DNA of 30,643 nucleotides from an uncultured Gammaproteobacteria bacterium. Lineage in GTDB: Bacteria > Patescibacteriota > Microgenomatia > UBA12405 > JAHJSD01. Positions within the stretch are counted from its first letter, which is position 1. Every line of letters starts with the position of its first letter. Below the pieces are notes generated by a model. It was given only the letters and a program-made list of their open reading frames with translations, was not told where the DNA came from and did no database searches. Positions 13,062 through 27,822 of the stretch are shown here, one piece after another. The translations under genes and the position numbers were made by a program. Where the stretch lies: positions 1-30,643 of the forward strand of contig CAZWLF010000001.1 in NCBI GenBank assembly GCA_964634805.1, written 5' to 3'.

Positions 13062-13124
13062 CTGTGTCGTCTCGGAGGCGGATCTTTAAAATATGGTTGG
13101 GATACGAACACTGAAGCTTTTTTA

Positions 13125-13342
13125 CTCGTCATTCTGATCTCCCTCGGGGAGAGAAGAATTTTGCTCTGTACCCTACGCGGTGCGGGGTCCTTAATCTTTA
13201 GGTAATTTGTTGCTAAAAAAGGGACCCGTCTGCTCGCCTCGCTGAGTAGTCAAGTCAGGTTGATGGCAAGTTTTAGCGAAAGGAAATTGGTCTTAGGAAA
13301 GTTGTTTTTCGAGCGAGTCTGACGAGTCGGGAAATATCGCAC
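13125..13342. repeat. Long direct repeat, copy 1
   Basis: 13179-13342 matches 13902-14065 at 162/164 nt. The first 50 nt or so are more diverged and start with a GTCATTCTGA hairpin. Confidence 0.97.
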
Positions 13343-13485
13343 CCCGGAGGGTGATAGGCTTGCCCGCCATCGCTATGCTCAGCCGTTGCGGGCGGGGATA
13401 CTTTGTCATTATCCGCTGGCTGGCGGGTTCCTTCCTGCCTCGCTCGGCTCGTCTTTTTGGTTGGGAACCGATTGAGTAATGAGTA

Positions 13486-13529
13486 AGAAAACCCCCCTGT
13501 TTCTTATCCTTGAAAAAGGGGAGTTTTCT
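13486..13529 (-). terminator. Stem-loop after the DUF5679-like gene
   Basis: AGAAAACCCCCCT...AGGGGAGTTTTCT inverted repeat just past the minus-strand stop. Confidence 0.6.
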
Positions 13530-13545
13530 AACCTTCAACTATATC

Positions 13546-13695
13546 TTATTTTGCGGAAACGAATTTAAACATCACTGTTCCGCAGTCCGGACACTTGGCT
13601 TTTACATAGGGTCTGCCATTTTTGGCAATACCGTGTTCACAACTGGCGTCGTCAACATCCTTTTTAGCGCGACATTTTACACAGTAGAAAACCAT
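13546..13695 (-). CDS. 49-aa zinc-ribbon protein, DUF5679-like (absent from ORF track)
   Basis: MVFYCVKCRAKKDVDDASCEHGIAKNGRPYVKAKCPDCGTVMFKFVSAK with two CxxC motifs. SD GGGGTGA; candidate promoter TTGCAA-18-TATATT at 13770-13741. Confidence 0.85.
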   Translation of the reverse strand: MVFYCVKCRAKKDVDDASCEHGIAKNGRPYVKAKCPDCGTVMFKFVSAK

Positions 13696-13850
13696 TGTTA
13701 CTTTCACCCCCTTCCAGAGCAGGAAAATTCAAGTAGGCACAATATAACACGGCTCAGGCAGGAATTGCAAGTGAAGCCCTCTTGGGCTATTTTTGGGAGC
13801 AAAGTTCTCGCTCTCTGCCGTTCTGAACCAATGACGAGGGAAGATTCTTC

Positions 13851-14065
13851 CTCGCCATTCTGATCTCCCTTAGGGAGGGGAGAATTTTATTCTCCCTATA
13901 TGGTGCGGGGTCCTTAATCTTTAGGTAATTTGTTGCTAAAAAAGGGACCCGTCTGCTCGCCTCGCTGAGTAGTCAAGTCAGGTTGATGGCAAGTTTTAGC
14001 GAAAGGAAATTAGTCTTAGGAAAGTTATTTTTCGAGCGAGTCTGACGAGTCGGGAAATATCGCAC
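13851..14065. repeat. Long direct repeat, copy 2
   Basis: Near-identical to 13125-13342. Confidence 0.97.
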
Positions 14066-14329
14066 TATCACATCCCCGGGGGTGGATTAAAGTCAAAAAA
14101 TGCCCGGTGGTTGTTGCTATTATCGGTGAAAAGCGAGCCGCGGCTTATTTCAAGACAGCGAAGACCCTGGACGCAAGTCCAAGGATGAAGCGGTACCAAA
14201 TGATATTCCGGCATTGCCCCGGAACGAACCAGGCGGATCAATCCGCCAGCGGGCGGACCGCGGGCGCAAGCCTGTCGTGTAGTTTATTAATCCTTGGGGT
14301 AATAAACATCAAAATCCTAACCCTTTTGA

Positions 14330-14359
14330 TTGACATAACCGATTTTATAACAGTACAAT
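14330..14359 (+). promoter_or_regulatory. Sigma70-type promoter
   Basis: TTGACA-18-TACAAT, 10 nt before ATG 14370. Confidence 0.7.
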
Positions 14360-14369
14360 TAGACTAATT

Positions 14370-14819
14370 ATGGCTAATGGATTTTTGTTTATCTCGCTTT
14401 TGGTTTGGAACCTAATCGCTACCGCATTTATTGTTTTGGTGTTTTTTCAATTTCGTCGCTTGACTAAAGGGGTTAAGCAGGGTAATCTTAGGAGAATTTT
14501 GAAGTCCCTCTTGAAGCAGGGAAAGCTTTCTGAAGAGAATTTTAAAGAATTAGAAAAAAGGATTGTTTGCTTGGAGGGAGAAGGCAGACTTTCTTTAAAA
14601 AAGGTCGGTTTAGCCAAGTTTAACCCCTTTTCTGAATTGGGAGGGGATCAAAGTTTTTCTTTGGCGTTGTTAAACCGAAAAGGCAGCGGAGTTGTTATTA
14701 CCAGCCTTCATGGTCGCCAAACTACCAGGATTTATGCCAAGCTGGTTGAGGATAAAGATAAAAAAGAGAAAGTGAGGTTTTCCGCAGAAGAGTCTGAGGC
14801 GATCAAAAAAGCTTTATAA
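14370..14819 (+). CDS. DUF4446-like membrane-anchored protein
   Basis: N-terminal TM and coiled coil, then KVGLAKFNPFSELGGDQSFSLALL...GVVITSLHGR...YAK. Confidence 0.8.
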   Translation: MANGFLFISLLVWNLIATAFIVLVFFQFRRLTKGVKQGNLRRILKSLLKQGKLSEENFKELEKRIVCLEGEGRLSLKKVGLAKFNPFSELGGDQSFSLALLNRKGSGVVITSLHGRQTTRIYAKLVEDKDKKEKVRFSAEESEAIKKAL

Positions 14820-14835
14820 AGCTTTTAAAACTAAA

Positions 14836-16062
14836 ATGAGTAATAAAACCAAAATCTTCTTGTTCGCTTTTGGTCTCTATTTTTTAAGCGCAGGGATATC
14901 TTTTGCCGCTTTTTCCCAGGCAGACTCGATCTCTTCAATTATTTCTCCGGCCGGGGATGAAAAGGATGAAGAGGATCAGTCTGAAGGGGGGCCGGTTTCC
15001 TTTTCCGGACCCAGAGACCAGGAGTGTCCTACCAACGGCAAAAAATACACGAAAGAACAGCTGGATATTTGGGAGAAAAAGAGACCCTTGCTGGTAACAA
15101 TTGAAAATCATGAAGATGCCCGGCCCCAGTCGGGTCTGTCCAGGACAGATGTGGTTTACGAGGCAGTGGCGGAAGGCGGGATTACCCGTTTTATGGGGAT
15201 TTATTACTGTGAGGCGACCGAACCTTATTCCGGTAAATACGATCTGGGTCCGGTTAGGTCAGCCAGAACTTACTTTTTAGATTGGGCTTCGGAATATTCA
15301 GACTATCCTTTGTACGTTCATGTTGGCGGGGCTCACTGCAGTTCTGACGGCAGTTACTGCACTACCGATAAAAGAGCCCAGGCTTTAGAGCAAATCAGTC
15401 AATATGGCTGGCTGGAGCCTGCTCATAGAAGCGATATGAACCAATTTGCCCTTAGCTACAAAGAATGCCGCCGGGAACCGGACAGGACCGGAGAATCCAG
15501 GGCGACAGAACATACAATGTATTGCGACAGCAATGCGCTTTGGGCGGTAGCGGAGTCGCGCGATTTGGCGGCAGAAAATAAAGAGGGCGATTCCTGGGAT
15601 GAAAATTTCCGCCAGTGGAAGTTTAAAGATGGCGCCGAGTTAGTAAAAAGAGGTGAAGTTTCTAAAATAGAATTTGATTTTTGGGAAGATTATAGCGGCT
15701 ACCATGTTCAATGGAACTATGACAAAGAAAAAAATTTGTATTTTCGTCTGAACGGGAGTCAGGAGCAAAAAGACTTTAACAATGGTCAACCTTTAAGCGC
15801 TGGTGTAGTGATAATTCAGTTTACTAAGGAAATTGGTCCGGTTGATGACAGTAAGCACATGCTTTATACCACTATCGGCCAGGGCAAGGCTTTGATTTTT
15901 CAGGATGGAGAAGTGGTTGAGGGTAAGTGGAGTAAAGAAGCCAGAAAAGAAAGAACAATCTTTACCGATTCTAAAGGGAAAGAAATTGAATTCAGCCGCG
16001 GCCGGATCTGGATTGAAGTTCTCTCAAACACTAACGAAGTAGACTACAATGAAGCCGGTTAA
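14836..16062 (+). CDS. DUF3048-like exported protein
   Basis: Signal/TM segment, then RPLLVTIENHEDARPQSGL, DVVYEAVAEGGITRF, GPVRSAR and GRIWIEV. Confidence 0.85.
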   Translation: MSNKTKIFLFAFGLYFLSAGISFAAFSQADSISSIISPAGDEKDEEDQSEGGPVSFSGPRDQECPTNGKKYTKEQLDIWEKKRPLLVTIENHEDARPQSGLSRTDVVYEAVAEGGITRFMGIYYCEATEPYSGKYDLGPVRSARTYFLDWASEYSDYPLYVHVGGAHCSSDGSYCTTDKRAQALEQISQYGWLEPAHRSDMNQFALSYKECRREPDRTGESRATEHTMYCDSNALWAVAESRDLAAENKEGDSWDENFRQWKFKDGAELVKRGEVSKIEFDFWEDYSGYHVQWNYDKEKNLYFRLNGSQEQKDFNNGQPLSAGVVIIQFTKEIGPVDDSKHMLYTTIGQGKALIFQDGEVVEGKWSKEARKERTIFTDSKGKEIEFSRGRIWIEVLSNTNEVDYNEAG

Positions 16063-16648
16063 AACTCTTAGGAGGATTATTGTTTCCGAATCCCGCCTCA
16101 AACTTCTGCAAATTTTTTTTTACAGTATGGACGGAATGTTTTATGTTCGGCAATTGACCCGGCTGACAAAAGAGAAACTGAATTCAATCCGCCGGGAATT
16201 GCAAAACTTGAAAGAGGCAGGGATCCTGGAAAGCGAGTGGCGGGGCAACAGACTTTTTTACCGGATAAATAAGAAGAATCCGTTTTACCAGGAAATTCTG
16301 GCAATGGTGATGAAAACAAAAGGCTTGGGGGGTAATTTAATTAAATTCCGCCAGAAGTTAGGAAAGATAAAGTTTGTTATTTTTTCCGGCAGGTTTGTTA
16401 GCGGTTTTAGCAGTCCGGGGAAAAAGGAGGCAATTGATCTTTTGCTAATCGGTAAAATTGTCTTGCCGGAATTGGGTGCCCTGGTGAGAGAAGAAGAAAA
16501 AATAAGAGGTTCAGAAATTAACTATACGGTTATAGATGAGGCGGATTTTACTTTCAGAAAGAAAAACAGAGATCCCTTTTTGCTCCAGATCCTGCTTCAG
16601 CCCAGAATAATGATTATCGGCAGTGAGGCGGAAATGGTAAATTTTTAA
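16049..16648 (+). CDS. Winged-helix protein with degenerate nucleotidyltransferase-like C-terminal domain
   Basis: FYVRQLTRLTKEKLNSIRRELQNLKEAGIL...GNRLFY (wHTH), then FVIFSG...IDLLLIG...INYTV. Confidence 0.65.
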   Translation: MKPVKTLRRIIVSESRLKLLQIFFYSMDGMFYVRQLTRLTKEKLNSIRRELQNLKEAGILESEWRGNRLFYRINKKNPFYQEILAMVMKTKGLGGNLIKFRQKLGKIKFVIFSGRFVSGFSSPGKKEAIDLLLIGKIVLPELGALVREEEKIRGSEINYTVIDEADFTFRKKNRDPFLLQILLQPRIMIIGSEAEMVNF

Positions 16649-16650
16649 AA

Positions 16651-17985
16651 ATGAAAAACAGAAGGCTTCTTTTTTGGTCAATCTTATTGCTCACTCTCGC
16701 TTCTTTGCTGATAGACTTGCCGACTAGTTACCGGCTGAAATTTAAAGTGGGTTCTTTTAGCTTTGATCAGGAAATTTCCCGGCCGTTTGCCTTTCTGCGT
16801 CGTTTTAAATTAGTCAGAGGTTTGGATCTTGCCGGAGGAGTTCACTTGATGTTCAGAGCAAAAATGGATGGCGTGGCCCAAGAAGATCGCGACCAGGCGC
16901 TGGTTTCTTTAAGAGACAACATTGAAAGAAGGGTCAATCTTTTCGGGGTTAGTGAGGCAGTGATCCAGACTTCCAAGGCGGCAGATCAGCATCGGCTGAT
17001 CGTCGAGCTGCCCGGTGTGGTTAACGTTGGGGAGGCGATCGACTTGGTTGGAAAAACGGCCCAATTGGATTTCAGAGAGTCGGTTGAAATTCCCCCGGAG
17101 GCGACCGAGTCGGCAACAATTTATGATCTTTTTGCCGGCAAGACCGGATTGACCGGCGCCCACTTAATCAAGAGCGAAGTTCAGTTTAATCCTAATACCG
17201 GAAAGCCCGAAGTCGGTTTGGAATTTGATGAGGAAGGTAAAAAACTTTTTGGCGAGATTACCGGAAGGAATGTGGAAAAACCGCTGGCAATCTTTTTAGA
17301 CGGTCTTTTGGTTTCCGCTCCCCAGGTAAAAGAGCCGATCACCGACGGCAAGGCGGCCATTAGCGGCGAGTTTGATCTAAGACAAGCGAAATCTTTAGTT
17401 TCCCAGTTGAATGCCGGTTCCCTTCCGGTCTCAATCGAACTGATCGAACGCCGCCAGGTTGGGCCGACCTTAGGAGAAGAATCGGTTCAGAAAAGTATGA
17501 AAGCCGGCCTGGTCGGTTTAGCAATCGTTGCCTTGTTTATGGCAATCTACTATCGCTGGCTTGGTATTTTGGCTGATGCCGGACTGATAGTCTATGCTTT
17601 GATTTCCTTAGCCATTTATAAATTGATTCCGGTTACTTTGACCTTGCCCGGTTTAACCGGATTTTTGCTCTCAGTAGGGATGGCGGTAGACGGCAATATT
17701 TTAATTTTTGAAAGAATGAAGGAAGAACTTAAACAGGGCAAACCCTGGAATGTAGCCATGGAGTTGGGTTTTGGCCGGGCCTGGGATTCGATTCGCGATG
17801 CCAATGTTTGCACCCTGATCATTTGTTTTTTGCTTTTTAACCCGTTTGATTGGGGTTTTCTTAGTAATTCCGCTATGGTTCGCGGTTTTGCCGTAACTTT
17901 GTTTTTGGGAGTCTTTATCGGTATGTTTACCGGCATTATCGTTGCCAGAACCTTGTTAAGAGTTTTTGCCAGGAAAAAAGCATGA
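16651..17985 (+). CDS. secD: Protein translocase subunit SecD
   Basis: GLDLAGG, IERRVNLFGVSE, VELPG, VGPTLG, GMAVDGNILIFER and IRDAN. Confidence 0.97.
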   Translation: MKNRRLLFWSILLLTLASLLIDLPTSYRLKFKVGSFSFDQEISRPFAFLRRFKLVRGLDLAGGVHLMFRAKMDGVAQEDRDQALVSLRDNIERRVNLFGVSEAVIQTSKAADQHRLIVELPGVVNVGEAIDLVGKTAQLDFRESVEIPPEATESATIYDLFAGKTGLTGAHLIKSEVQFNPNTGKPEVGLEFDEEGKKLFGEITGRNVEKPLAIFLDGLLVSAPQVKEPITDGKAAISGEFDLRQAKSLVSQLNAGSLPVSIELIERRQVGPTLGEESVQKSMKAGLVGLAIVALFMAIYYRWLGILADAGLIVYALISLAIYKLIPVTLTLPGLTGFLLSVGMAVDGNILIFERMKEELKQGKPWNVAMELGFGRAWDSIRDANVCTLIICFLLFNPFDWGFLSNSAMVRGFAVTLFLGVFIGMFTGIIVARTLLRVFARKKA

Positions 17986-18863
17986 ATGGAATCAAGTGGA
18001 CTAAGTTAAACTGGATTTTTTTTACTATTTCGGCCCTGTTTATTTTGCCGGGGGTTTATTCTTTGGTTCGCTGGGGATTGGAACTTTCAGTTGATTTTAC
18101 CGGAGGCACTCTTCTTGAAATTAGCGCCGACGGTTTAAACCAAGACGGAATCGCCGAGCTGATCAACGGAAAAGGCTTGAGTTTAAAAAGCATTCAGTCG
18201 AGCGGGGATAAATCTTTGCTCTTGCGCTTTGATTCTTTAGAGGAAGCTTCTAAAGACGACCTGCTGAACACTATTAATGAAACCAACGGCAGTTTGCCCG
18301 AGGTGGTTCGTTGGGAGTCTTTGGGTCCGGCGCTGGGACAGGAACTTTTAACCAAAACGGGAATCAGTATTTTATTAGCTATTTTAGTAATTTTGGTTTA
18401 CATCAATCTTCAGTTTAAAAATAGGGCTTTCGGTGTCTGCGCTGTTTTGGCAATGCTTCACGATAGCCTGATCTTATTGGGATCTTTTAGCCTTTTGGGC
18501 CATTTTTTCGGAGTCGAAGTAGACAGCCTTTTTGTGACCGCGGTTCTGACGATCCTTTCTTTTTCGGTTCACGACACCGTCGTTGTTTACGACCGGATCA
18601 GAGAACTTTCCAGGATAAATCCAAAGATGTCTTTTGAAGAAATTTCCGATTTGGCCATCAGCCAAACCCTGGTCAGATCAATCAATAATTCTTTAACTAT
18701 TATTTTTATGTTGATCGCTTTGGTCTGGTTGGGAGGAGAAACAATCCGGAATTTCGCCCTGGCCTTGCTGATCGGCACTGTTGCCGGTACCTATTCTTCC
18801 ACCTTTACCGCGGTGCCTTTATTAGTAGTTTGGCAAAAGGCCTTTAGGAAAAGATGGAAATAG
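17982..18863 (+). CDS. secF: Protein translocase subunit SecF
   Basis: SVDFTGG, LGPALG, HDSL, FSVHDTVVVYDRIRE, RSINNS and GTYSS. Confidence 0.97.
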   Translation: MNGIKWTKLNWIFFTISALFILPGVYSLVRWGLELSVDFTGGTLLEISADGLNQDGIAELINGKGLSLKSIQSSGDKSLLLRFDSLEEASKDDLLNTINETNGSLPEVVRWESLGPALGQELLTKTGISILLAILVILVYINLQFKNRAFGVCAVLAMLHDSLILLGSFSLLGHFFGVEVDSLFVTAVLTILSFSVHDTVVVYDRIRELSRINPKMSFEEISDLAISQTLVRSINNSLTIIFMLIALVWLGGETIRNFALALLIGTVAGTYSSTFTAVPLLVVWQKAFRKRWK

Positions 18864-19516
18864 GCGGCGCTGAATTTGCTTTTCAACCGGAAACAGAAGC
18901 AACACCTCTGCAGGTCTTTGATGTGGTTGTGGTTCACGGTAACATGTTAAAAAGAGGTAAAGAAGGAAAATTAAAGCTTAGTTTTGATGGAAAGATGAGA
19001 GCGATTGCCGCTGCGGAAATGTTAAGAAGGGGAATTTGTAGCAACTTGGTAATCACTGGAGGAAAAACAGCCGGGGAAAGAGAACTTTCCGAGGCGGAAA
19101 TGGTTAAAACATTCTTGACAGGAAGATATAAAAAGGGTCCGGGAAGTAGATTTGAGGCACTTGATCCAGAGAAAATCTTTTTAGAAGAAGAGTCTAAGGA
19201 TACTTCAGCTAATTTAGTAAATGTGAGAGATTTGATGAAAAAAGAGGGGTGGAGATCAGTTGCTTTACTATCTAACCAGTATCATTTAAGAAGAGTAGTA
19301 GAACTGGCGGGAAACTTAGGCTTGAGCGCGAATGTTATTTCTGCTGAAACAGGACTAATTTTTCGAGATAAGCGTTTTCAAGAAGTGGTTGATAACTATC
19401 TCTCTTTTCCTGAAACAATAAAAAAAGAAAAAAAGGAACGATTTTTTCGGATTCTTCTTTTATTTGATCCAAAAGGCACTCTTCCCAAAATAACGTCTTC
19501 CCTTTTTAGAAGATGA
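18854..19516 (+). CDS. YdcF/DUF218 (ElyC/SanA-like) protein
   Basis: VVVHG, LVITGG, SEAEM, LEEESKDTSANL and SNQYHLRR motifs. A/G-rich codon style unlike secDF. Confidence 0.8.
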   Translation: MEIGGAEFAFQPETEATPLQVFDVVVVHGNMLKRGKEGKLKLSFDGKMRAIAAAEMLRRGICSNLVITGGKTAGERELSEAEMVKTFLTGRYKKGPGSRFEALDPEKIFLEEESKDTSANLVNVRDLMKKEGWRSVALLSNQYHLRRVVELAGNLGLSANVISAETGLIFRDKRFQEVVDNYLSFPETIKKEKKERFFRILLLFDPKGTLPKITSSLFRR

Positions 19517-19522
19517 TTAGCC

Positions 19523-19612
19523 TACCCCCGGGGTGGGTTACAAGCGTATTAGGTTTGCGCTTCGGGATTTAATCCGATCCTGGATCGAAAGAGCTAAAAC
19601 GATCCAGGATCG
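19523..19612. repeat. CCCCGGGGTG palindrome plus CGATCCWGGATCG doublet
   Basis: CCCCGGGGTGGGTTA at 19526-19540, CGATCCTGGATCG at 19575-19587 and CGATCCAGGATCG at 19600-19612. Confidence 0.75.
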
Positions 19613-19614
19613 AG

Positions 19615-19911
19615 ATGATACTCTTGACAAAAGAGATGGGAAAGCAGCAAGATGTTTTTATGACAGAAACCAGAGGTGGTCCTCCTCCTAAGGAGGTAGT
19701 AAGACTTGTAATCCGGCTTGGTGTGGAGGCTGATAGAAATCCGTGCTTTAGGGTGCTGGCAGAGGAAACAAACGCCGAAATAAGCCGCGGCACTCGTTTT
19801 TACCAAAGACCGCTCCCTTCGGAGGTAGCAAAGGCAAGACAAGAGGCGGCAGTGTTTCAAGCCGGCGCACTAAGACAAATCAAGGCTTTAAGATTTTCTT
19901 TAGGTTCCTAA
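19615..19911 (+). CDS. Hypothetical protein (start uncertain; 19636 or 19660 possible)
   Basis: Open frame filling the space between two palindromic repeats; no recognisable motif. Confidence 0.45.
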   Translation: MILLTKEMGKQQDVFMTETRGGPPPKEVVRLVIRLGVEADRNPCFRVLAEETNAEISRGTRFYQRPLPSEVAKARQEAAVFQAGALRQIKALRFSLGS

Positions 19912-19923
19912 ATTTTCCCAGCC

Positions 19924-20091
19924 CACCCCGGGAACCCATTTACAAAACCCAACTCAATTTTTGTACACCCCCGGTTTGTACACCCCGGGGTGGGTTAGGC
20001 TTGCCCGCCCGCCTAAATATTCCGGAGGAATTTTTGGCGAGGCCCGCCAAAGCTGAGTTTGGGGATGCGGGCGGGTTGACACCCCGGGAGT
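19924..20091. repeat. Cluster of CACCCC(N)GG half-sites and one full palindrome with a GCCCGCC...GCGGGCGGG hairpin
   Basis: Half-sites at 19924, 19966 and 20080; full CACCCCGGGGTG at 19981-19992. Confidence 0.8.
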
Positions 20092-20099
20092 AGAAAGTC

Positions 20100-21455
20100 C
20101 TAATCACTCAGCCTTTCAATCCTCTCCAGCAAATATTTCCTCTTGTTTCTTTCTTTATCCTCTTCAACTTCTTTAAAAAGCTGTTTTAAAATCCGGCCTA
20201 TTTCCGGTCCCGGCCCTATTTTTAAAATCTCCATCACATCGTTGCCATTGACTTTCAAATCGGCGACTGAAAACGGCTGTTTTTGAACTTCGACTAACCG
20301 TTTTTTAAATAGATCAGTCCGCCAGGAGGTTTTTGGAACTCCACTGCCGAGCCTGTCTCCGGTCCGGATCGATAAAATATCATCCAAGTTTTCTTTACTT
20401 ACTCTTCGGATAAATCTGCGAATAGCGGCATCAGTCAGTTTCTCGTCCGGAGCAAATTGATGCCAGCGGACTAACCGCCAGAGCTTGTCTAATTGTTTAT
20501 TAGACAGTCTCAGCCGCAGTCCGATTTTTTTAGCGATTGCCGCGCCAACCACTTCGTGATTATGGAAACTTCTTTTCTCCCCTTCGCCTTGAACCACGAT
20601 TGGCTTGCCAATGTCGTGAAGCAAAGCCGCTAACCGGGTTACCGGATTTTTGGAGTCGCAAAATCTAAGCGTTTCGATAGCATGAGTCCAAACATCATGG
20701 ATATGGTGTTTTGCCTGATCAACTCCCCGTCCTTGGATTAATTCGGGCATCAGGTATTGGAGCAGTCCGCAGTTGTAAAGCATCAAAACCCCGTCAGCCG
20801 GATGCCGGCTGGATAAAAGTTTAAAAATTTCGACCCGGATTCTTTCCCAGGCAACTTCCTCAATCAATCGGGCATTTTTTTTGATTGACTCAAATGTTTC
20901 CGGCTCGATGATAAAACCTAGCTGAGTGGCAATCCTTACCGCTCTGAGTAATCTTAAGGCGTCTTCTTTAAATCTTTGATCCGGATCGCCAACTGCCCGG
21001 ATTATTTTTTTCTTTAGATCTTCCTGGCCGCCGAAAGGATCAATTATCTTTTGGATTTCGAATTTCGAATTTCGAATTTCAAAACTTATTGCTATAGCGT
21101 TGACAGTCAGGTCCCTTCTGGAAAGATCTTCCTCAATTGTTTTTCCCCAGCGGACCTGGTCAGGTCGTCTTCTGTCGGAGTATTCCCCTTCGGTCCGGTA
21201 AGTGGTAATTTCCAAAATATCATTTTTCTTTTTACCCATGACAATGCTGACCGTGCCGAACTTGTTATTATAAAAACTATTTTTGGGGAAAAGAGCCAGG
21301 ATTTGTTTTGGCGGGGCGTTAGTGGCAAAATCCCAGTCTTCAATTTTGTGTTTGGTCAGCAAGCCTCTGGAGGACCCGCCGACTAAGAAAAGATCAAACT
21401 TTGCTTTTCGGAAAACTTTAATTACTTTTTGAACCTTATCCGGTAATGTGGTCAT
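20100..21455 (-). CDS. cca: CCA tRNA nucleotidyltransferase with HD domain
   Basis: LVGGSSR, DWDFATN, EDLSRRDLTVNA, RFKEDALRLLRAVR, ERIRVE and LLHDIGK. Confidence 0.95.
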   Translation of the reverse strand: MTTLPDKVQKVIKVFRKAKFDLFLVGGSSRGLLTKHKIEDWDFATNAPPKQILALFPKNSFYNNKFGTVSIVMGKKKNDILEITTYRTEGEYSDRRRPDQVRWGKTIEEDLSRRDLTVNAIAISFEIRNSKFEIQKIIDPFGGQEDLKKKIIRAVGDPDQRFKEDALRLLRAVRIATQLGFIIEPETFESIKKNARLIEEVAWERIRVEIFKLLSSRHPADGVLMLYNCGLLQYLMPELIQGRGVDQAKHHIHDVWTHAIETLRFCDSKNPVTRLAALLHDIGKPIVVQGEGEKRSFHNHEVVGAAIAKKIGLRLRLSNKQLDKLWRLVRWHQFAPDEKLTDAAIRRFIRRVSKENLDDILSIRTGDRLGSGVPKTSWRTDLFKKRLVEVQKQPFSVADLKVNGNDVMEILKIGPGPEIGRILKQLFKEVEEDKERNKRKYLLERIERLSD

Positions 21456-21488
21456 TTTTTCATTTTTGACCTTTTAATAATTTGACCA

Positions 21489-21517
21489 ATTATAGCAGTC
21501 GGATTTGTTTGAGTCAT
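21489..21517 (-). promoter_or_regulatory. Promoter of cca
   Basis: ATGACT-17-TATAAT with a TGn extension. Confidence 0.6.
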
Positions 21518-21668
21518 TTCCTCTCCTTTGTCCCGGTCTCCCTCATGGAGATGATGGCGAAGGATCCTTTAATCTCAGGCAATTTGCTTTCTCAATTCAA
21601 ACACCCCCGGCGGTGGAAAATGAATAAATGGTCAAATGATTAATAAACGAATAACTTCTCTCCCCTCC

Positions 21669-21709
21669 GTCATCCTGAGTCCCCGACACAACGTCGGGGC
21701 GAAGGATCC
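21669..21709. repeat. GTCATCCTGAG...CGAAGGATCC palindromic repeat
   Basis: Inner hairpin CCCCGAC/GTCGGGG. CACCCC-type palindromes lie nearby at about 21602 and 21735. Confidence 0.65.
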
Positions 21710-21808
21710 AGGATCGTGATTTTCCAAAACGAAGCCCCGCGGGTGGAATTATCAATGAACCAATAGATAAATGAGTAAATATTAAGTGTTAATATATAAA
21801 TTGAAACG

Positions 21809-23458
21809 ATGGACAAGAAATGGCTGTTGCTTCACTCAAAAAAAATTACCCGGCAAATCAGCCCGGACCAAGTTTTGAAAATTCTGCTTAAAAATAGGAA
21901 AATAGTTTCCTCGAAAAGAGCCGAATTTTTGAACCCGACCCACCCTTCTAAAATTACTCCGGCTAAAGCAGGCATTGCTAAAACTTCTTTGGTTCGGGCG
22001 GGTGATCTGATCAAAAAATTCAAAAAAGAGAAGATTGTCGTCTACGGCGACTATGATGCCGACGGCCTGTCTTCAACAGCAATTGTTTGGGAGGCGCTCT
22101 GGGCTAAAGGTTACGACGCAATTCCGTTTCTGCCTCACCGGGAAGAAGACGGTTACGGCATCAATCCGGACTCGGTGAAAAAATTAAAGAAAAAATACCC
22201 AAACTTAGGTTTGATTATTACAGTTGACAACGGCATTGTCGCCTTCGACGGGATCAAGGCGGCCAAAGATTTGGGGATTAAAACAATCATTACAGATCAT
22301 CACCTTGCTTTAGACAAACTCCCTCCTGCCGATGTTATTGTCCATAGCGCCGAACTGGCCGGCAGCGGCGTTGCCTGGTTTTTGGCCTCTTTTTTCGGTT
22401 ATCGGTCTTTAGAATTGGTTGCTTTGGGCACTATCGCTGATATGCTTCCTTTATTAGGGATTAATCGGAGTTTTGTTAAGTATGGCATTAGAGAGCTGTC
22501 AAAAACTAACCGGGTTGGTTTAAAACTGCTCAAGCAAAAGGGCGGTATCAGTAATAATGACGAACTTCTTCCCTGGCATGTTTCTTTTATTCTGGCGCCA
22601 AGATTAAATGCGGCCGGCCGGCTCTCTGACGCGGTTGACGGCTTAAGACTGCTTTGCACCAAAAAGGCGGCTAGGGCGAAGGAATTGGTAGAAAAACTCG
22701 AAGCAATCAACTCTGAGCGTCAGAAGCTAACGGTTGATGGTTTGGACGATGCCAAAAAAAAGAATCCTCTTTCCCTGCAGAAAATGATTTTTGCTGTCGA
22801 CGAGTCTTACCATCCCGGAGTGATCGGTTTGATTGCTGGCAAACTGACCGAAGAATTTTACCGCCCCTCAATCGTAATTTCCAAAGGAGAAAAAATCAGC
22901 CGCGGTTCGGCCCGGTCGGTTAACGGTTTTAACATCATCGACTTTATCAGAAGGGCAGATTCTTTTTTAATTGACGCCGGCGGCCATCCCATGGCGGCCG
23001 GTTTTACCATCGAAACTTCGAAAATAAAAAAGTTTATCAGTCAATTGAAAAAAATGGCCGAAAAGGAAATTAAGACCAAAGATTTAGCTCCTGAATTAAA
23101 AATAGATTTTTTTATAGATGTTTCTTTAATTGGCAAAAAGCTTTACCGCTTGATTCAAGAACTGGCGCCATTTGGGTTGGGTAACCCGGAGCCGCTGTTT
23201 TTAATTAAAAAAGCCAGAGTGGTTAAATGCCAGGCCTTGGGATCGGGAAGACAGCATTTAAAGCTTTGGTTAGATGACCCGGAGACAAAAGCGGTAGAAA
23301 GAGTGGTTGCCGAAGCGATCGGTTTCGGCTGGGGAGATTTTTGGCAAGATTTGCTCACAGGCGATTTTGTTGACTTGGTTGCCAGCTTAAATTTGAACCG
23401 CTGGCGGGACAGAGAAACAATCCAGTTGAAAATCAAAGACCTAAGAAAAGCGGATTGA
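21809..23458 (+). CDS. recJ: Single-stranded-DNA-specific exonuclease RecJ
   Basis: YGDYDADG, ITVDNG, TDHH, GTIADM, PRLNAAGR, GGHPMAAG and PFGLGNPEP. Confidence 0.97.
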   Translation: MDKKWLLLHSKKITRQISPDQVLKILLKNRKIVSSKRAEFLNPTHPSKITPAKAGIAKTSLVRAGDLIKKFKKEKIVVYGDYDADGLSSTAIVWEALWAKGYDAIPFLPHREEDGYGINPDSVKKLKKKYPNLGLIITVDNGIVAFDGIKAAKDLGIKTIITDHHLALDKLPPADVIVHSAELAGSGVAWFLASFFGYRSLELVALGTIADMLPLLGINRSFVKYGIRELSKTNRVGLKLLKQKGGISNNDELLPWHVSFILAPRLNAAGRLSDAVDGLRLLCTKKAARAKELVEKLEAINSERQKLTVDGLDDAKKKNPLSLQKMIFAVDESYHPGVIGLIAGKLTEEFYRPSIVISKGEKISRGSARSVNGFNIIDFIRRADSFLIDAGGHPMAAGFTIETSKIKKFISQLKKMAEKEIKTKDLAPELKIDFFIDVSLIGKKLYRLIQELAPFGLGNPEPLFLIKKARVVKCQALGSGRQHLKLWLDDPETKAVERVVAEAIGFGWGDFWQDLLTGDFVDLVASLNLNRWRDRETIQLKIKDLRKAD

Positions 23459-23530
23459 TTGGTAAGGATATACAAGCACCCATCTTTCCCACCCTTCCCT
23501 GTTGGTCTTATTAACCTCATTAAGAAATTA

Positions 23531-23563
23531 CACACCAGGTGTGGGATAGGTTGACACATCGGG
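23531..23563. repeat. 33-bp direct repeat, left copy
   Basis: CACACCAGGTGTGGGATAGGTTGACACATCGGG, identical to 24725-24757. Confidence 0.95.
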
Positions 23564-23722
23564 AGTTGACTCCGAGATACTCTACACCGGGTATGCAAAA
23601 TTCTTTCAAAATGGTATACAATTTCTTCAGGGCGTCGGATGATGCCGCTGTCCATTAAACGAAGCCACCCTACGCCTACCTACACAAGAAGTTTTATATA
23701 ATTCAATCTTTATCAAAACACC

Positions 23723-24352
23723 ATGGCACAAAACAATTCGGAAAACTTAGAAAAAATATTCAACTTTTTGCATAAAATTGAAAATCTGAAATCTACTTTA
23801 AGATGTATCAAAACAACTTCCGGAAGAAAAGAATCCAGCGCTGAACATTCTTGGAGATTAGCCTTAATTACTTTCATAATTGCTGATGAATTGAGATTGA
23901 ATGTTGATGTGAACAGAGCAATCAAAATTGCCTTAGTTCATGATCTCGCAGAAGCGTTAACTGGAGATATCAATGCAATGTTAATTGCTGAAGGAAAATT
24001 CTCTAAAAGTGAAAAAGAAAGACAAGAAATTGAAGCGATTATAAATCTTCAAAAAACTCTTCCGGAAGTTATCGGTAAAGAGATTTCAGGTTTGTGGCAT
24101 GAATATAATGATAATAAGACAAAGGAAGCTAAATTTGTGAAAGCCTTGGACAAGATTGAAACTTTAACTCAATTAGCAGAAAGCGGTTATGAAATTTACG
24201 ATAAACCAGAGTTTACTGCGAATTACGCAAATAAATCTGTAAAATCGTTTCCCGAATTGTCAAGTATGTTGAAAATCGTTAAAAGAAAGCTGAAAGCTGC
24301 ATTTGATAAAGGAAACATTGGGTGGAAAAAAGAATATAACTCTCTTGATTAA
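23723..24352 (+). CDS. HD-domain phosphohydrolase (YfbR/HDDC2-like 5'-deoxynucleotidase family)
   Basis: ESSAEHSWRL, ALVHDLAE, GD and EAKFVKALDKIE. AT-rich. Confidence 0.88.
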   Translation: MAQNNSENLEKIFNFLHKIENLKSTLRCIKTTSGRKESSAEHSWRLALITFIIADELRLNVDVNRAIKIALVHDLAEALTGDINAMLIAEGKFSKSEKERQEIEAIINLQKTLPEVIGKEISGLWHEYNDNKTKEAKFVKALDKIETLTQLAESGYEIYDKPEFTANYANKSVKSFPELSSMLKIVKRKLKAAFDKGNIGWKKEYNSLD

Positions 24353-24446
24353 CGGTGGGTTCTGATCAGCTTACTATTACAGCTTGTCACACCCCTGGTG
24401 AGATAGAGGATCTTTCCGGAGTTATTAATTTATTAGGAGGAAACCT

Positions 24447-24677
24447 ATGAGCAAATTATCCTGCGGGACTGGGCTACAGAAAAATATCATAGATAAGGAG
24501 GTGTTCAAAAGAGAGCTTGCTCTGTGTCATAAACTGTCTCGGGAGAATGGCGGTAAATGTTGTTGGGGAGTCTGCGAAAGTTGTGGGGTGATACCGTTTC
24601 TTTACAAATTACACAAGGGTGTGTTGCTTGAGGACCCTGCTGAAATAAAAAAGGCAAAAAATAAAGTAGTGAAATAA
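24447..24677 (+). CDS. Small Cys-rich hypothetical protein
   Basis: Strong SD AGGAGG; C-x10-CC-x3-C-x2-C cluster. Confidence 0.7.
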   Translation: MSKLSCGTGLQKNIIDKEVFKRELALCHKLSRENGGKCCWGVCESCGVIPFLYKLHKGVLLEDPAEIKKAKNKVVK

Positions 24678-24724
24678 AATTCATAGGTCGCAAATCGTTA
24701 CACTTATATCCACACCAGTATATC

Positions 24725-24757
24725 CACACCAGGTGTGGGATAGGTTGACACATCGGG
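24725..24757. repeat. 33-bp direct repeat, right copy
   Basis: Identical to 23531-23563. It overlaps a perfect 14-nt tandem duplication TATATCCACACCAG (24705-24732). Confidence 0.95.
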
Positions 24758-24789
24758 GTTGAAGCGATCCAGAATTGTGATGATCCTGC

Positions 24790-24819
24790 TTGAATTTAAG
24801 CTCCAACCTCCGTTATAAT
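24790..24819 (+). promoter_or_regulatory. Promoter of the T-box-aspS transcript
   Basis: TTGAAT-18-TATAAT. Confidence 0.75.
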
Positions 24820-24832
24820 ATCAATCGAGAAA

Positions 24833-25036
24833 AACAACGATCCTGTTTGTGACCCAGGGGAGTTGAAGGAAGAAACCCCGCATTCGGCGGGAAAGTAGAG
24901 CCTTCCGGGCGCGCCCGTAACAGCGTTAAACGAGTTCCGACGTTACGTCGGAAGAAGCAGGGTGGCACCGCGAACTCACCTAAATCCTCGCCCCTGTCAA
25001 TCAGTTTGTTCTGGTTGATATGGGCGAGGGTTTTTT
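24833..25036 (+). promoter_or_regulatory. T-box riboswitch (ultrashort Stem I, Asp specifier GAC) with intrinsic terminator
   Basis: K-turn Stem I with GAC at 24851-24853, Stem II with AGUA/GAA S-turn, Stem IIA/B, Stem III, T-box AGCAGGGUGGCACCGCG (24956-24972), and terminator CCUCGCCC/GGGCGAGG followed by U6. Confidence 0.92.
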
Positions 25037-25077
25037 ATTGGGCCAAAATTTGTTAAAGTTTAACTAAGGAGTAAAAA

Positions 25078-26883
25078 ATGAAACGAACACTGATAAAAGA
25101 CACCGTTTCACGTGTTGGTGGAAAAGTGGCAATCTCCGGCTGGGTAAATAGTGTCCGGAGTCATGGCAAATTAGCTTTTGCTGATATCCGGGATAGGTCT
25201 GGAATGATTCAGGTAGTCGGGGGAAAAGAAATTGCCAAACTGAATCCGGAATTTGTAGTCGGAATTGAAGGTTTAGTTAAGAAAAGAGAAGAAAAATATT
25301 TTAACCCGAAGATAATTACCGGAGAAATCGAGCTCGAGGTTGAGAAGTTAGCCATTTTAGCGGAAGCAAAAGACCTTCCTTTTGATATTCACCAACCCAG
25401 TTTGGATGTTTCTTTGCCTATTTTGTTAGACTATCGGGCCGCTTCATTAAGAAACAAGAAAATCGCTGACATTTTCCGGGTTCAGTCCACTATTGTCAAG
25501 GCTTTCAGGAAGCACATGGTGGACAATGGCTTTACCGAATTCCAAGCACCGACAATTGTTGCCACCGCCACTGAAGGCGGCTCGCAGGTTTTCCCGATTG
25601 ATTATTTTGGCTACAAAGCCTATTTAGCCCAAAGCCCTCAGTTTTATAAACAGATCATGGTTTCTGTCTTTGAACGGGTTTTCACTCTGGCCCATGCTTA
25701 TCGGGCAGAGCCGAGTGTTACTACCAGACACATGACTGAATATGTTGGTATGGATGTTGAGATGGGTTTTATCGACAGCTGGTTGGACGTAGTTGAAACC
25801 GCAGATAAATTAGTCAAAGCGATTTTTGCCGAAATAGAAAAAGAACATCCAGATGTTTTAGCAAATTTTGGCACAACTATCCCTAAAACAGTAGAGGAAA
25901 CGCCGAGAGTAAAATTGTCCGAAGCCCAAGAAATAATTTTCAAAAGGACAGGCCGGGATATTAGGGGGGAGCCGGACATGGACCCGGAAGGAGAAAGGGA
26001 AATTTGCCGCTGGGCGGAAGAAGAACACGGCAGTGAGTTAGTTTTCATCAGCCATTATCCAACCAAGAAAAGACCTTGGTATACCTACCAGGATTTGGAA
26101 AACCCGGAAGAAACTTTGAGTTTCGATCTGATCGGCCGAGGAGTGGAGTGGATCACCGGCGGCCAAAGAATCAATGATTTTAATGTTCTTTCCGCTAATA
26201 TTAAAAAAATGGGCGCCAATCCGGAAGATTTTGAAATTCCATATTTACAGGCGTTTCGTTATGGCATGCCCCCCGAGGGCGGTTTTTGCTTAGGGCTGGA
26301 GAGAGTCACTCAAAATATTTTGGGCTTGTCCAATATCAGGGAAGCAACTCTTTACCCCAGGGATTTAGAGCGGGTCGATGCCAGACTTTCGACCATCGGC
26401 CAAAAACCCGGTGAAGAAACCAAAAGCCTTTTCGCCGAATTGGTTGACCTTCTTGCGGATAACAATATTAATTACCAGCTTTGTAATCACAAACCGGTTT
26501 ATACCAGCCAGGAAGCGGCTGAAGCCAGGGGAACCAAATTGGAGCAAGGGGCCAAGGCTCTGATCATGTTTGCTGACAAAAAGCCGGTTTTAATTGTCAT
26601 TTCCGCCGCTTATGAAGTTAATCTTGAAAAGCTGAAAAAATTGCTGAAAGTTAAAAAGCTAAAAATGGCCAGCGCTTCCGAGGTGGAGCAAATATCCGGA
26701 ACTAAAATCGGCGCTGTTCCGCCCTTCGGCAGTTTAATCGGGCTGAAAACATGGGTTGATAAAAGTTTGGCGGAGAATAAACAAATCGCTTTTAACGCCG
26801 GATTGCATACTAAGTCAATTATCATCAGTTATGACGATTGGCTTAAACTGGTCGAGCCGGAAAAAGCGGACTTTTCTTCCTAA
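25078..26883 (+). CDS. aspS: Archaeal-type aspartate-tRNA ligase (probably non-discriminating) fused to a C-terminal YbaK/ProXp domain
   Basis: OB-fold, YLAQSPQFYKQ, AYRAE..RH..EY, GGQRI, GMPP.GG..LGLER and YPRD. The last ~155 aa carry QGAKAL, GAVPPFG and IAFNAG. Confidence 0.93.
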   Translation: MKRTLIKDTVSRVGGKVAISGWVNSVRSHGKLAFADIRDRSGMIQVVGGKEIAKLNPEFVVGIEGLVKKREEKYFNPKIITGEIELEVEKLAILAEAKDLPFDIHQPSLDVSLPILLDYRAASLRNKKIADIFRVQSTIVKAFRKHMVDNGFTEFQAPTIVATATEGGSQVFPIDYFGYKAYLAQSPQFYKQIMVSVFERVFTLAHAYRAEPSVTTRHMTEYVGMDVEMGFIDSWLDVVETADKLVKAIFAEIEKEHPDVLANFGTTIPKTVEETPRVKLSEAQEIIFKRTGRDIRGEPDMDPEGEREICRWAEEEHGSELVFISHYPTKKRPWYTYQDLENPEETLSFDLIGRGVEWITGGQRINDFNVLSANIKKMGANPEDFEIPYLQAFRYGMPPEGGFCLGLERVTQNILGLSNIREATLYPRDLERVDARLSTIGQKPGEETKSLFAELVDLLADNNINYQLCNHKPVYTSQEAAEARGTKLEQGAKALIMFADKKPVLIVISAAYEVNLEKLKKLLKVKKLKMASASEVEQISGTKIGAVPPFGSLIGLKTWVDKSLAENKQIAFNAGLHTKSIIISYDDWLKLVEPEKADFSS

Positions 26884-26905
26884 CCCAAATTAGTTTCTCT
26901 GTTTT

Positions 26906-27787
26906 ATGATTTTTAAAAAAACCGTCTGGCCTTGGGCTTTGCTTTTAATTCTTTTTGGCACGCTTTTATTATTGAAAAGCTTTTTGTTTTGGAGGAAGTA
27001 CAATTTGGTTTTTAAAGAAGAGCCCTTGCCCTTGCTCGAAGAGCCGGTTTCTTTTCCGCAGATTAACGCCAAGTCGGCGATAGTAATTGATGCCGACTCG
27101 GGAACGGTTTTATTCGAAAAAGAGCCTCGTCTTAAGCTTAATCCCGCTTCGATTACCAAAATGGTTACGGCAATAACTGCCCTGGAAACCTATCCGGTTG
27201 ACGAGGTGGTCACTGTTATCAACCCTTATCCTGTCGGTAAAGTTATGGGGTTGGAATCGGGCGAGAAAATCACGGTTAAAAACTTAATTTATGGTCTTCT
27301 GGTTCATTCTGCTAACGATGCCGCTTTTGTCCTGGCCGGTCAGACTGAGGAAAAAATTCAAAAGTTTATCGTCAGAATGAACCAGGTTGCTTCTCAGGAG
27401 AATTTAAACGACACTCATTTTGTTAACTTTGACGGGGAAGAAGACGAAGACCACTATTCTACTGTTTTTGATTTGGCTAATCTAACCAGATGGGCCTTAA
27501 GAAATAATATTTTTAGCGACGCAGTCCGGTTGGATAAGATTACTGTTACTGACACCGCTGGCGCGATTACTCATGATTTGGAGACTACCAATGAGCTTTT
27601 AGGCATGGAAGAGATTAAAGGGGTCAAAACCGGCTGGACTCCTTTGTCCGGTGAGTGTTTTGTCGGTTTGGTAGACTTCAAAGACCGCCGTTTGATTACG
27701 GTAATTTTGGGCAGTGAAGACCGTTTTGGTGAAACTAAAAAGCTGGTTGAATGGGCAAAGGAAAACGTTTTCTGGAAAGAGCTTTAG
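26906..27787 (+). CDS. D-alanyl-D-alanine carboxypeptidase (peptidase S11)
   Basis: PASITK (SxxK), HSAND (SxN), KTG and an N-terminal TM. Confidence 0.93.
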   Translation: MIFKKTVWPWALLLILFGTLLLLKSFLFWRKYNLVFKEEPLPLLEEPVSFPQINAKSAIVIDADSGTVLFEKEPRLKLNPASITKMVTAITALETYPVDEVVTVINPYPVGKVMGLESGEKITVKNLIYGLLVHSANDAAFVLAGQTEEKIQKFIVRMNQVASQENLNDTHFVNFDGEEDEDHYSTVFDLANLTRWALRNNIFSDAVRLDKITVTDTAGAITHDLETTNELLGMEEIKGVKTGWTPLSGECFVGLVDFKDRRLITVILGSEDRFGETKKLVEWAKENVFWKEL

Positions 27788-27791
27788 TTTT

Positions 27792-27822
27792 TATTTATCA
27801 CACACCCGGTGTGTGATAAATA
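27792..27822. repeat. Perfect 15-bp-arm palindrome with CACACCCGGTGTG core
   Basis: TATTTATCACACACC-C-GGTGTGTGATAAATA. Confidence 0.85.

Follow-up and report, generated by a model that had tools for sequence, protein, structure and literature searches.

The window analysed here, a stretch of 30,643 nt (contig CAZWLF010000001.1), contains a family of short palindromes that are probably repetitive extragenic palindromic (REP) elements of a REP-RAYT system (RAYT, REP-associated tyrosine transposase) native to the Microgenomates/Patescibacteria lineage. The arms of the repeats covary, their position relative to genes is biased, copies occur within genes, a Y1 transposase gene flanked by them is present in a sister genome, and breakpoints of rearrangements coincide with their edges. 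We infer that the organism of the window possesses an orthologous enzyme, which would mobilise the repeats.

Pfam scans identified the window as a housekeeping stretch of a Patescibacteria genome, its sequence was recovered in groundwater metagenomes, and the nearest named relatives according to RecJ are Patescibacteria/Woesebacteria. The metagenome-assembled genome (MAG) JAHJSD01 (loci L004 and L015), with 89% amino acid identity in RecJ and ~83% DNA identity to the window, served as the sister genome. Loci L035, L036, and L038, whose RecJ proteins are 60–68% identical to that of the window, represented distant relatives.

All palindromes and half-sites listed in an earlier note on this DNA were found on inspection of the sequence, at most 2 nt from the coordinates given for them. 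The strict motif CACMCCNGGKGTG (up to one mismatch) matched 6 times against 0.07 expected, and none of 100 dinucleotide-preserving shuffles reached 6. The full and half sites, 15 of 15, lay within the 14.2% of the window outside coding sequence and RNA genes (p ~2e-13 on the assumption that the sites are independent; 8e-6 for the 6 strict matches alone). Of the 14 intergenic gaps exceeding 40 bp, 9 contained sites, and these all fall in the interval from 13 to 28 kb. The half-site hexamers (6-mers with one two-fold degenerate position) were not enriched window-wide, 14 and 19 being seen with ~15 expected in 30.6 kb, and the idea of a DNA-uptake sequence was dropped on account of these near-expected counts. 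The complete unit, designated P-T1, is a hairpin (P) with 12-bp arms followed by a 3' tail (T1), (G/T/A)TAGG-TTGACAC-N-TCGGGAA. The sites are given below with the scores of a covariance model built on 28 copies and with their counterparts in the sister genome; H denotes an unrelated hairpin element, and R1 and R2 are the two copies of a longer repeat described further on.

23523 to 23595, plus strand: P-T1 with hairpin CACACC-A-GGTGTG, outer arm GGATAGG, tail TTGACACATCGGGA, and an extension to 23595; 65 nt past the recJ stop; 61.3 bits; orthologous copy at L004 11712-11790.
24708 to 24761, plus strand: P-T1 with the left arm duplicated (CCACACCAGT ATAT CCACACC); 31 nt past the stop of a 76-aa Cys-rich gene; 55.4 bits; orthologue at L004 15290-15334.
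27795 to 27819, no strand: P without a tail, a perfect palindrome with 11-bp arms, TTATCACACAC-CCG-GTGTGTGATAA; 8 nt past the dacA stop; 25.6 and 25.0 bits on the two strands; after dacA the sister genome holds a full P-T1 (L004 18877-18921).
19979 to 20091, plus strand: P (CACCCCGGGGTG GGTTAGG, 19981-19999) and tail T1 (TTGACACCCCGGGAGT, 20076-20091); covariance-model matches at 19975-19999 and 20065-20092; its P part corresponds to the copy that precedes the RayT-like gene of locus L044 (see below).
20000 to 20075: nested hairpin element H of ~76 bp (CTTGCCCGCCCGCC...GCGGGCGGG), which splits the preceding P from its T1.
19921 to 19978, plus strand: two left-arm half-sites, CCCACCCCGGG and TACACCCCCGG (left-arm duplicates), upstream of the palindrome at 19981.
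19518 to 19541, plus strand: P copy TACCCCCGGGGTGGGTTA, 7 nt past the DUF218 stop; 16.8 bits.
13340 to 13397, plus strand: P copy CACCCCGGAGGGTG ATAGG followed by H (13359-13397), at the right end of R1; repeat family D18.
14063 to 14089, plus strand: P copy CACTAT CACATCCCCGGGGGTGGATTA at the right end of R2; 11.5 bits; architecturally equivalent P at L004 2617-2672.
21602 to 21616, plus strand: degenerate P CACCCCCGGCGGTGG in the divergent cca/recJ region.
21735 to 21746, plus strand: degenerate P CCCCGCGGGTGG.
24388 to 24409, plus strand: P-like CACACCCCTGGTGAGATAGAGG, at the exact junction with a truncated 3' remnant of an 81-aa gene.

Comparison of the sequences and repeats confirmed both the shared tails and the direct repeats at the flanks that the earlier note had reported. 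Positions 23531-23563 and 24725-24757 form a perfect repeat of 33 nt; CACCCC..TAGGCTTGCCCGCC is common to the copies at 13340 and 19981, with 86% identity over 29 nt; and the ~220-bp repeat R1/R2 shows 97% identity between 13171-13342 and 13894-14065 and 82% between 13119-13167 and 13845-13893. The motif GG(A/T)TAGG, taken in that note for a tail, is instead the outer part of the right arm, the arms being ~12 bp long, and the true 3' tail is TTGACAC-N-TCGGGAA.

The anatomy of the unit was established with copies gathered from the window, the sister genome, and 27 metagenome loci containing the exact 20-base tail pattern GTGNGNTAGGTTGACACNTCGGG. The hairpin arms reach 12 bp (CTAAC ACACC / GGTGT GTTAG) around the centre CC-N(0-3)-GG, and the arm variants are CACACC, CACCCC, and CCCACTCC. 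The 18-nt tail TTGACAC-N-TCGGGAA, with xTAGG, is invariant, although across the metagenome loci this invariance comes partly from selection by the search pattern, which fixed the tail; its conservation among the window and sister copies is independent of that pattern. Past TCGGGAA the similarity ends abruptly. The left arm is duplicated in tandem, once or twice, in many copies, and in L008, L012, L017, and L019 the tail is present on both sides, giving an imperfect palindrome of ~57 bp. GTAG occurs in 6 of the 28 aligned copies; the 3' foot (G/T/A)TAGG, in which TAGG was fixed by the search pattern, is often paired with CTAxC of the left arm. In two window copies the unrelated hairpin CTTGCCCGCC...GCGGGCGGG follows TAGG, with a length of ~40 bp (13359-13397) or ~76 bp (20000-20075); at 19981 it separates TAGG from the TTGACAC tail, and at 13340 no tail follows.

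The 28 non-redundant copies aligned without gaps, and their arms covary: the pair 26:32 is AU in 14 copies, CG in 6, and UA in 4, and the pairs 20:38 and 22:36 also change on both sides. The observed covariation was reached by none of 500 shuffles, and in slid controls the paired fraction fell from 83% to 35–56%. An alternative stem, in which the right arm pairs with the tail, has 88% of its cells paired, and its covariation score was reached by 148 of 500 shuffles; an intrinsic terminator or attenuator acting via this stem was therefore rejected, as it lacks covariation. A promoter with TTGACA of the tail as the -35 box was discarded too, no consistent -10 box being found at 16–19 nt across the copies; the canonical promoters in the window lie away from the palindromes. 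Rfam searches gave nothing at the palindromes, and in the whole window only RNase P RNA and a T-box. A phage origin was abandoned after neither the tail pattern nor the tnpA fragment described below gave any match (0 for each) in viral contigs.

When 251 kb of related loci were searched with the covariance model, ~35 full copies and ~30 hairpin-only copies were found. The P-T1 family is present in many contigs of groundwater Microgenomates (Patescibacteria), and the model did not find it in two relatives with ~60% RecJ identity. About 19 of the 26 non-redundant full copies lie 3' of a co-oriented gene, mostly 16–83 nt past the stop codon, and the remaining ones, about a quarter, are placed in divergent regions or antisense. 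The neighbours are ordinary genes: holB, a T2SSE-family type II/IV secretion ATPase gene, truB, uvrA/B, rpsP, trmD, and an ABC transporter gene. According to passages in PMC3733652, published REPs likewise favour the vicinity of the 3' end of the upstream open reading frame (ORF) where neighbouring genes are unidirectional or convergent, and DNA-repair genes sometimes contain them. Here, in-frame copies were found inside three genes, encoding RecG, a PMT_2 glycosyltransferase, and a Fic protein of Curtissbacteria. The Fic copy encodes 16–18 residues that align to a gap in the solved Fic structures 6i7j and 4rgl, and the element is therefore an insertion in this gene. The RecG copy was put aside as proof of insertion, being ambiguous: the linker in which it lies is length-variable in all homologues. 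At three positions, behind recJ, the Cys-rich gene, and dacA, the window and the sister genome share orthologous P-T1 copies, which are more similar between the two than the neighbouring genes are; the other positions differ. The orientation of copies agreed with GC skew at 10 loci and disagreed at 6.

Copies placed 3' of co-oriented genes, three positions kept between the genomes with identity above their surroundings, and a U-rich tract following the right-arm-plus-tail stem in about half of the copies would all suit a cis-acting host element without mobility of its own, i.e., a stabiliser or terminator hairpin in 3' untranslated regions or an operator for a dimeric DNA-binding protein; published REPs both terminate and stabilise transcripts. 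We nevertheless consider this explanation very unlikely. The terminator-like stem does not covary, neither the U-tract nor a -10 box is consistent, and the spacer is anything from 0 to 4 nt long, too much variation for a fixed dimeric operator. Moreover, the antisense and divergent-promoter positions of about a quarter of the copies, the copies in frame inside genes and inside a transposase gene, and the canonical terminators and sigma-70 promoters that the window has independently of P all speak against it.

A candidate enzymatic counterpart of the repeats was met in the sister genome, where alignment of the orthologous locus in L025 and L027 exposed an ORF starting like an IS200 transposase. 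This truncated tnpA matches Pfam Y1_Tnp (7.6e-13) over profile positions 2–68 only and the NCBIfam IS200/IS605 transposase model with 62 bits, above the cutoff, in agreement with the NCBI annotation. A P copy truncates it, and further P-T1 copies flank it at either end. The contig that carries it belongs to the same MAG as L004 and also contains an intact Y1_Tnp gene:

L044, 15790 to 16461: RayT-like gene encoding a 223-aa protein (MBU2592347.1), between serS and secA.

The 223-aa protein scores 34.5 bits with Pfam Y1_Tnp (cutoff 23), and its sole NCBIfam match is NF047646, REP-associated tyrosine transposase (7e-13; 48.7 bits, the equivalog cutoff being 80). The HUH motif (as HYH) is found in MPNHYHFVIQ and the tyrosine motif in CRYVHLNP. 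A P-T1 copy (15727-15771, plus strand) ends 19 nt before the start of the gene, and an inverted one (16476-16510, minus strand) begins 15 nt past its stop and is followed by four tandem arm repeats. The arrangement of the gene and its flanking repeats is identical in four assemblies of the sister species (L044, L045, L046, and L048), in all of which the gene occupies the serS-secA locus, and one copy was present in 409 kb of sequence. The earlier note had linked the palindromes to REP elements and HUH (RAYT) transposases and had proposed looking for a RAYT/TnpA gene flanked by the same palindrome; the 223-aa Y1_Tnp gene of the sister genome, bracketed by inverted copies, is such a gene, and the truncated IS200-type tnpA embedded in copies agrees with the proposed link. 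Its statement that the window lacks a transposase or recombinase holds for site-specific enzymes, Pfam scans of the 27 larger ORFs having returned only recA, recJ, and comM. Beside the site of the truncated tnpA, a tRNA-like sequence (L025 ~650-720, minus strand of the locus) was noticed, a candidate by appearance only; the adjoining site holds the truncated tnpA in the sister genome and another 195-aa ORF with two P-T1 variants in the window-type genome.

On a rival view, P-T1 would be the subterminal hairpin end of an insertion sequence (IS) that was active in the past, and the palindromes would be non-autonomous IS200/IS605 derivatives, similar to miniature inverted-repeat or palindrome-associated transposable elements (MITEs, PATEs) and moved by an IS200-type TnpA in place of a domesticated RayT. 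The truncated tnpA exceeds the NCBIfam cutoff, has P-T1 and the repeat module D (see below) upstream and P downstream in the direct orientation of IS200/IS605 ends, and conservation halts past TCGGGAA as abruptly as at the end of an IS. However, this tnpA is broken by a P insertion and is represented by one copy in 409 kb, and the intact Y1 gene is RayT-like, was seen once in the same 409 kb, lies at one locus in four assemblies, and is flanked by inverted repeats. Such an origin of the palindromes is, in our opinion, unlikely.

Several observations weigh against a REP-RAYT system. The NF047646 score of the 223-aa protein (48.7 against 80) stays under the equivalog cutoff, and the protein has no sequence match to the solved RayT structures in the PDB. 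The transposase is seen in the sister species (~83% nucleotide identity) and not in the 33 kb examined of the window's own genome. The three conserved P-T1 positions indicate slow turnover, and the orientation bias could equally reflect a role in RNA. Neither a target-site signature nor a clean filled/empty pair for a single repeat was found in the comparisons of the window with L004 and of L025 with L028; Y1 transposition is not expected to produce target-site duplications.

In the earlier note the palindrome was interpreted as an integration/excision site of a gene-capture system with three payloads, namely the DUF5679 gene, the 98-aa ORF, and the HD and Cys-rich genes. This interpretation was not supported by the comparison of the loci, for which the following features are relevant:

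13119 to 13342, plus strand: R1, a non-coding copy of R2 between comM and DUF5679, 97% identical to R2 over 172 nt.
13845 to 14065, plus strand: R2, a composite in the ancestral position, in which a CGTC-tagged hairpin, a spacer, and P follow one another; L004 2500-2680 has its modules in this order too.
23655 to 24360, plus strand: HD_3 hydrolase gene with a 68-nt leader, a transfer unit of ~705 bp with 32% GC against 43.7% in the window.

DUF5679 is a backbone gene, divergent from DUF4446 and without flanking repeats in the sister genome and in L036 and L038, the distant relatives whose locus reaches the DUF5679/DUF4446 junction. The DUF5679 region of the sister genome lies 55 bp from comM, and the gain of the window relative to it is ~390 non-coding bp (13062-13455), made up of R1, the palindrome, and the H hairpin. 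BLAST found no other copies of the 172-nt R1/R2 core, and for this reason the core was dismissed as a dispersed repeat or small RNA. As a check, the note had proposed comparing close relatives for empty sites joined by one repeat copy. DUF218 and the 98-aa ORF are both missing in the sister genome, and the secF-cca gap of 170 bp there is devoid of a palindrome; different accessory genes occupy the secF-cca junction in every relative compared. In the two relatives with ~60% RecJ identity, recJ abuts or overlaps aspS without any repeat, recJ, aspS, and dacA all abutting or overlapping there. The HD and Cys-rich genes do not form one payload, since the 76-aa Cys-rich gene is kept in place in the sister genome and the HD gene is not, ~3.2 kb of other ORFs being present instead.

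The HD unit has a history of its own. Its DNA is 82–85% identical to that in L040-L043, with the homology limited to window positions 23655-24360. Among these loci are a contig of Parcubacteria, one that bears genes of archaeal type (ribosomal protein L32e, RNA polymerase Rpb1 domain 5), and one other contig. No P copies were found in the contigs sharing the unit. Its ends, set by the cross-genome homology, lie 88 and 357 nt from the P-T1 copies. The sharing of this DNA points to a recent transfer between Patescibacteria and archaea; HD proteins with 72–88% identity occur in organisms named Parcubacteria, Moranbacteria, Aenigmarchaeota, and Nanoarchaeota. Next to the unit, window 23596-23643 and L004 14016-14065 have in common, at 90% identity, a promoter-like block of 48 nt (TGGTATACAAT) together with a leader, and the genes 3' of this shared block differ, being HD in the window and a 189-aa Cys-containing ORF without a Pfam match in the sister genome.

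Gene capture as such would require P-T1 pairs in direct orientation to serve the Y1 transposase as left and right ends, the DNA between them being excised and reinserted as a cassette in an integron-like manner. The direct P-T1 repeats around the HD and Cys-rich genes and around several sister-specific gene blocks, breakpoints at P edges, and a Logan contig joining 23530 to 24725 could be read in this way. We find it highly improbable, though. Most intergenic gaps hold P-T1 in one orientation, so that any gene appears flanked; DUF5679 belongs to the backbone; the empty secF-cca site has no P; the HD unit ends away from P-T1 and occurs without P in other phyla; and no integrase was detected by Pfam among the window ORFs. 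The joining contig is most likely an assembly artefact, because the sample has a coverage gap (23572-23907) and the 33-bp repeat approximates the 31-letter index words. In the public-run contigs, the joints 23530>24725 and 13184>13907 both pass through repeats, at a depth of ~5x and with a gap in coverage; regarded as artefacts, they were not accepted as evidence for empty sites.

Palindromes do lie beside differences in gene content, and three breakpoints of rearrangements fall exactly at a palindrome edge. Homology to the 353-aa gene of the window (8771-9832) ends at 8848, and a P-T1 of the sister genome starts at the next base, leaving a 3' gene remnant. The P-like site at 24388-24409 adjoins the 3' remnant of the 81-aa gene, of which the sister genome has an intact version; from AGAGGATCTT onward the window is again homologous to L004, and there is a microhomology of 5 nt. 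Finally, the 97%-identical R1/R2 core ends exactly at the left palindrome edge in both copies. These three coincidences led us to conclude that the P-T1 repeats probably promote local indels. It was also observed that the sister genome (L004 47-512) lacks window positions 8253-11493, i.e., two minus-strand genes and ~540 bp of repeats. The two genes encode the 353-aa protein, with weak similarity to S24/S26 peptidases, and a 416-aa Peptidase_M73-like protein; of the former gene, the sister genome retains no more than the final 78 nt.

The REP-RAYT reading suggests the following course of events. A single-copy Y1/HUH tyrosine transposase would act in trans on P-T1, recognising the hairpin and tail on single-stranded DNA, cutting nearby, and copying or moving the repeats; IS608 TnpA and E. 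coli RayT are precedents for hairpin recognition by Y1/HUH enzymes. Copies would persist where they are least harmful, mostly just 3' of genes and sometimes in frame in tolerant loops. Being numerous, similar, and hairpin-forming, they may serve as local breakpoints for duplication and deletion, which would explain both the differences in gene content and the truncated remnants abutting palindromes. The indels may arise via recombination between copies, hairpin-stimulated template switching, or cleavage by the enzyme, and the accessory genes would come in through ordinary horizontal transfer, without the palindrome capturing them. A bolder proposal is that gene flux in these reduced genomes is driven mainly by the REP copies and the Y1 transposase. 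If P-T1 ends were cleaved or recombined, the intervening DNA would be deleted, duplicated, and perhaps mobilised, REP-bounded segments would behave as cassettes, and REPs would shape which acquired genes, e.g., the HD unit shared by bacteria and archaea, are kept between housekeeping genes. This we hold to be distinctly unlikely.

Other repeat modules accompany P-T1 in the window:

13127 to 13159, plus strand: family A, CGTC-ATTCTGA-hairpin-GAAGAAT, with further copies at 13853-13885 and 21668-21709.
19574 to 19612, plus strand: module D, hairpin CGATCCTGGATCG-(12 nt)-CGATCCAGGATCG followed by TGATTATCC; repeat family D15.

The form of family A is CGTCAT(T/C)CTGA, a variable GC hairpin, and GAAG(A/G)AT, with additional occurrences at 8390-8450 and at L004 2506-2530, 8272-8325, and 9862-9915. 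It resembles the 'CGTC-tagged' REP superfamily of Di Nocera et al. 2013. BLAST matches to family A were obtained in L022, L025, L027, and L028. We know of no transposase for the CGTC-tagged superfamily. Module D has half copies at 21702-21720 and 24763-24781 and sister copies at L004 270-316, 15390-15440, and 18925-18970. It usually lies directly 3' of P-T1, also occurs between P-T1 and the truncated tnpA in L027, and may be a part of an ancestral IS left end. Apart from these modules, a 32-nt direct repeat with 81% identity links 14257-14288 and 27839-27870 (..GGCG(C/T)AAGC...CGTGTAGTTTATT), located in two unrelated intergenic regions.

The genes among which the repeats are dispersed are the following:

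In the window: recA and the genes for RNase Y, HU, an ABC transporter, miaA, and an AI-2E transporter (Pfam).
11520 to 13061: comM (Pfam).
13546 to 13707, minus strand: DUF5679 gene (Pfam).
In the window, grouped with comM and DUF5679: DUF4446, DUF3048, secD, and secF (Pfam).
18854 to 19516: DUF218 gene (Pfam), with the 98-aa ORF next to it in the list of genes.
In the window, minus strand: cca (Pfam).
21809 to 23458: recJ (Pfam).
23723 to 24352: HD_3 hydrolase gene (Pfam).
In the window, listed after HD_3: the 76-aa Cys-rich ORF, aspS, dacA, and gltX (ORF/Pfam).

Two RNA elements were recognised as well. The bacterial class A RNase P RNA (7857-8206, minus strand) gave a full-length match of 93.1 bits, the Rfam gathering score being 100, and is preceded by a near-consensus promoter, TTGAAT-N17-TATAAT (~8215-8245, minus strand), which is kept in the sister genome. 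A T-box leader 5' of aspS (24828-24998, plus strand; 44.9 bits, under the Rfam cutoff) has GGGTGGCACCGCG, and a canonical terminator at ~24990-25040 goes with it. This leader is missing in the two relatives with ~60% RecJ identity because recJ abuts aspS there. The aspartyl-tRNA synthetase encoded by aspS (25078-26883, 601 aa) is a fusion with a C-terminal aminoacyl-tRNA editing (YbaK-like) domain, and its counterparts of 455–460 aa in relatives with 60–68% RecJ identity are without the editing domain.

The system shares many features with the REPtrons of E. coli, Pseudomonas, and other bacteria, which, as passages in PMC3733652 and PMC3116915 describe, comprise short GC-rich palindromes in many extragenic copies, with occasional intragenic ones, often in DNA-repair genes (PMC3733652), as in RecG here. 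A Y1/HUH gene bracketed by repeats, here encountered in the sister genome only and once in 409 kb of sequence, and mosaics with other short motifs are further common traits. Unlike REPtrons, however, the present repeats reside in reduced-genome Patescibacteria, a host not mentioned in the RAYT phylogenomic survey searched; outside the hairpin, what is conserved is an 18-nt 3' tail in place of a GTAG tag of 4 nt, and the tag-like xTAGG is in part paired. Tandem duplication of the left arm is frequent, and the 223-aa protein stays under the equivalog cutoff of the NCBIfam RayT model. Rickettsia palindromic elements (RPEs) are comparable as selfish palindromes of a small genome that are found in frame in genes, adding a short peptide in a tolerant loop. 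The likeness concerns behaviour only, the sequences being unrelated, and RPE-1 measures 100–150 bp and has no identified transposase, whereas the unit described here is ~45–57 bp long and has a candidate one. With IS200/IS605 and PATEs it has in common the Y1/HUH class, subterminal hairpins, an asymmetric sharp-ended end, and one orientation per locus, a comparison that draws partly on IS608; the differences are that no intact autonomous IS was found and that the intact Y1 gene has inverted and not direct flanks.

Integron attC sites and cassettes are similar in that imperfect palindromes lie beside small accessory genes. No IntI or attI is present here, however, and Pfam scans of the window ORFs and sister-specific ORFs revealed neither a Phage_integrase nor any other recombinase. 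The attC sites measure 57–141 bp and possess R''/L''/L'/R' boxes, for which arms of up to 12 bp around a 0–4-nt centre are too short. The ends of the presumed cassette, the HD unit, lie off the palindromes, and in place of promoterless, co-oriented cassettes there are genes with promoters of their own on both strands, DUF5679 being on the minus strand and HD having its own leader behind the promoter-like box. The bacterial interspersed mosaic elements (BIMEs) of E. coli and BOX of pneumococcus are, like the set of P, T1, H, D, and CGTC-tagged A, intergenic mosaics of short modules in variable order, but their modules are unrelated in sequence.

Published REP-RAYT surveys centre on Proteobacteria, and in the literature searched no report of such systems in Patescibacteria (Candidate Phyla Radiation) was found. 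The 223-aa Y1 protein and the 45-nt hairpin plus tail constitute a concrete candidate enzyme–substrate pair, accessible to in vitro work without culturing the organism. On the practical side, repeats identical over 33 nt interrupt short-read assemblies of such genomes or lead to false joins. Differences in gene content between close relatives fall at sites that the repeats mark, and a REP family as dense as approximately one site per kb over 15 kb, in a lineage usually considered streamlined, would mean that selfish repeats persist there.

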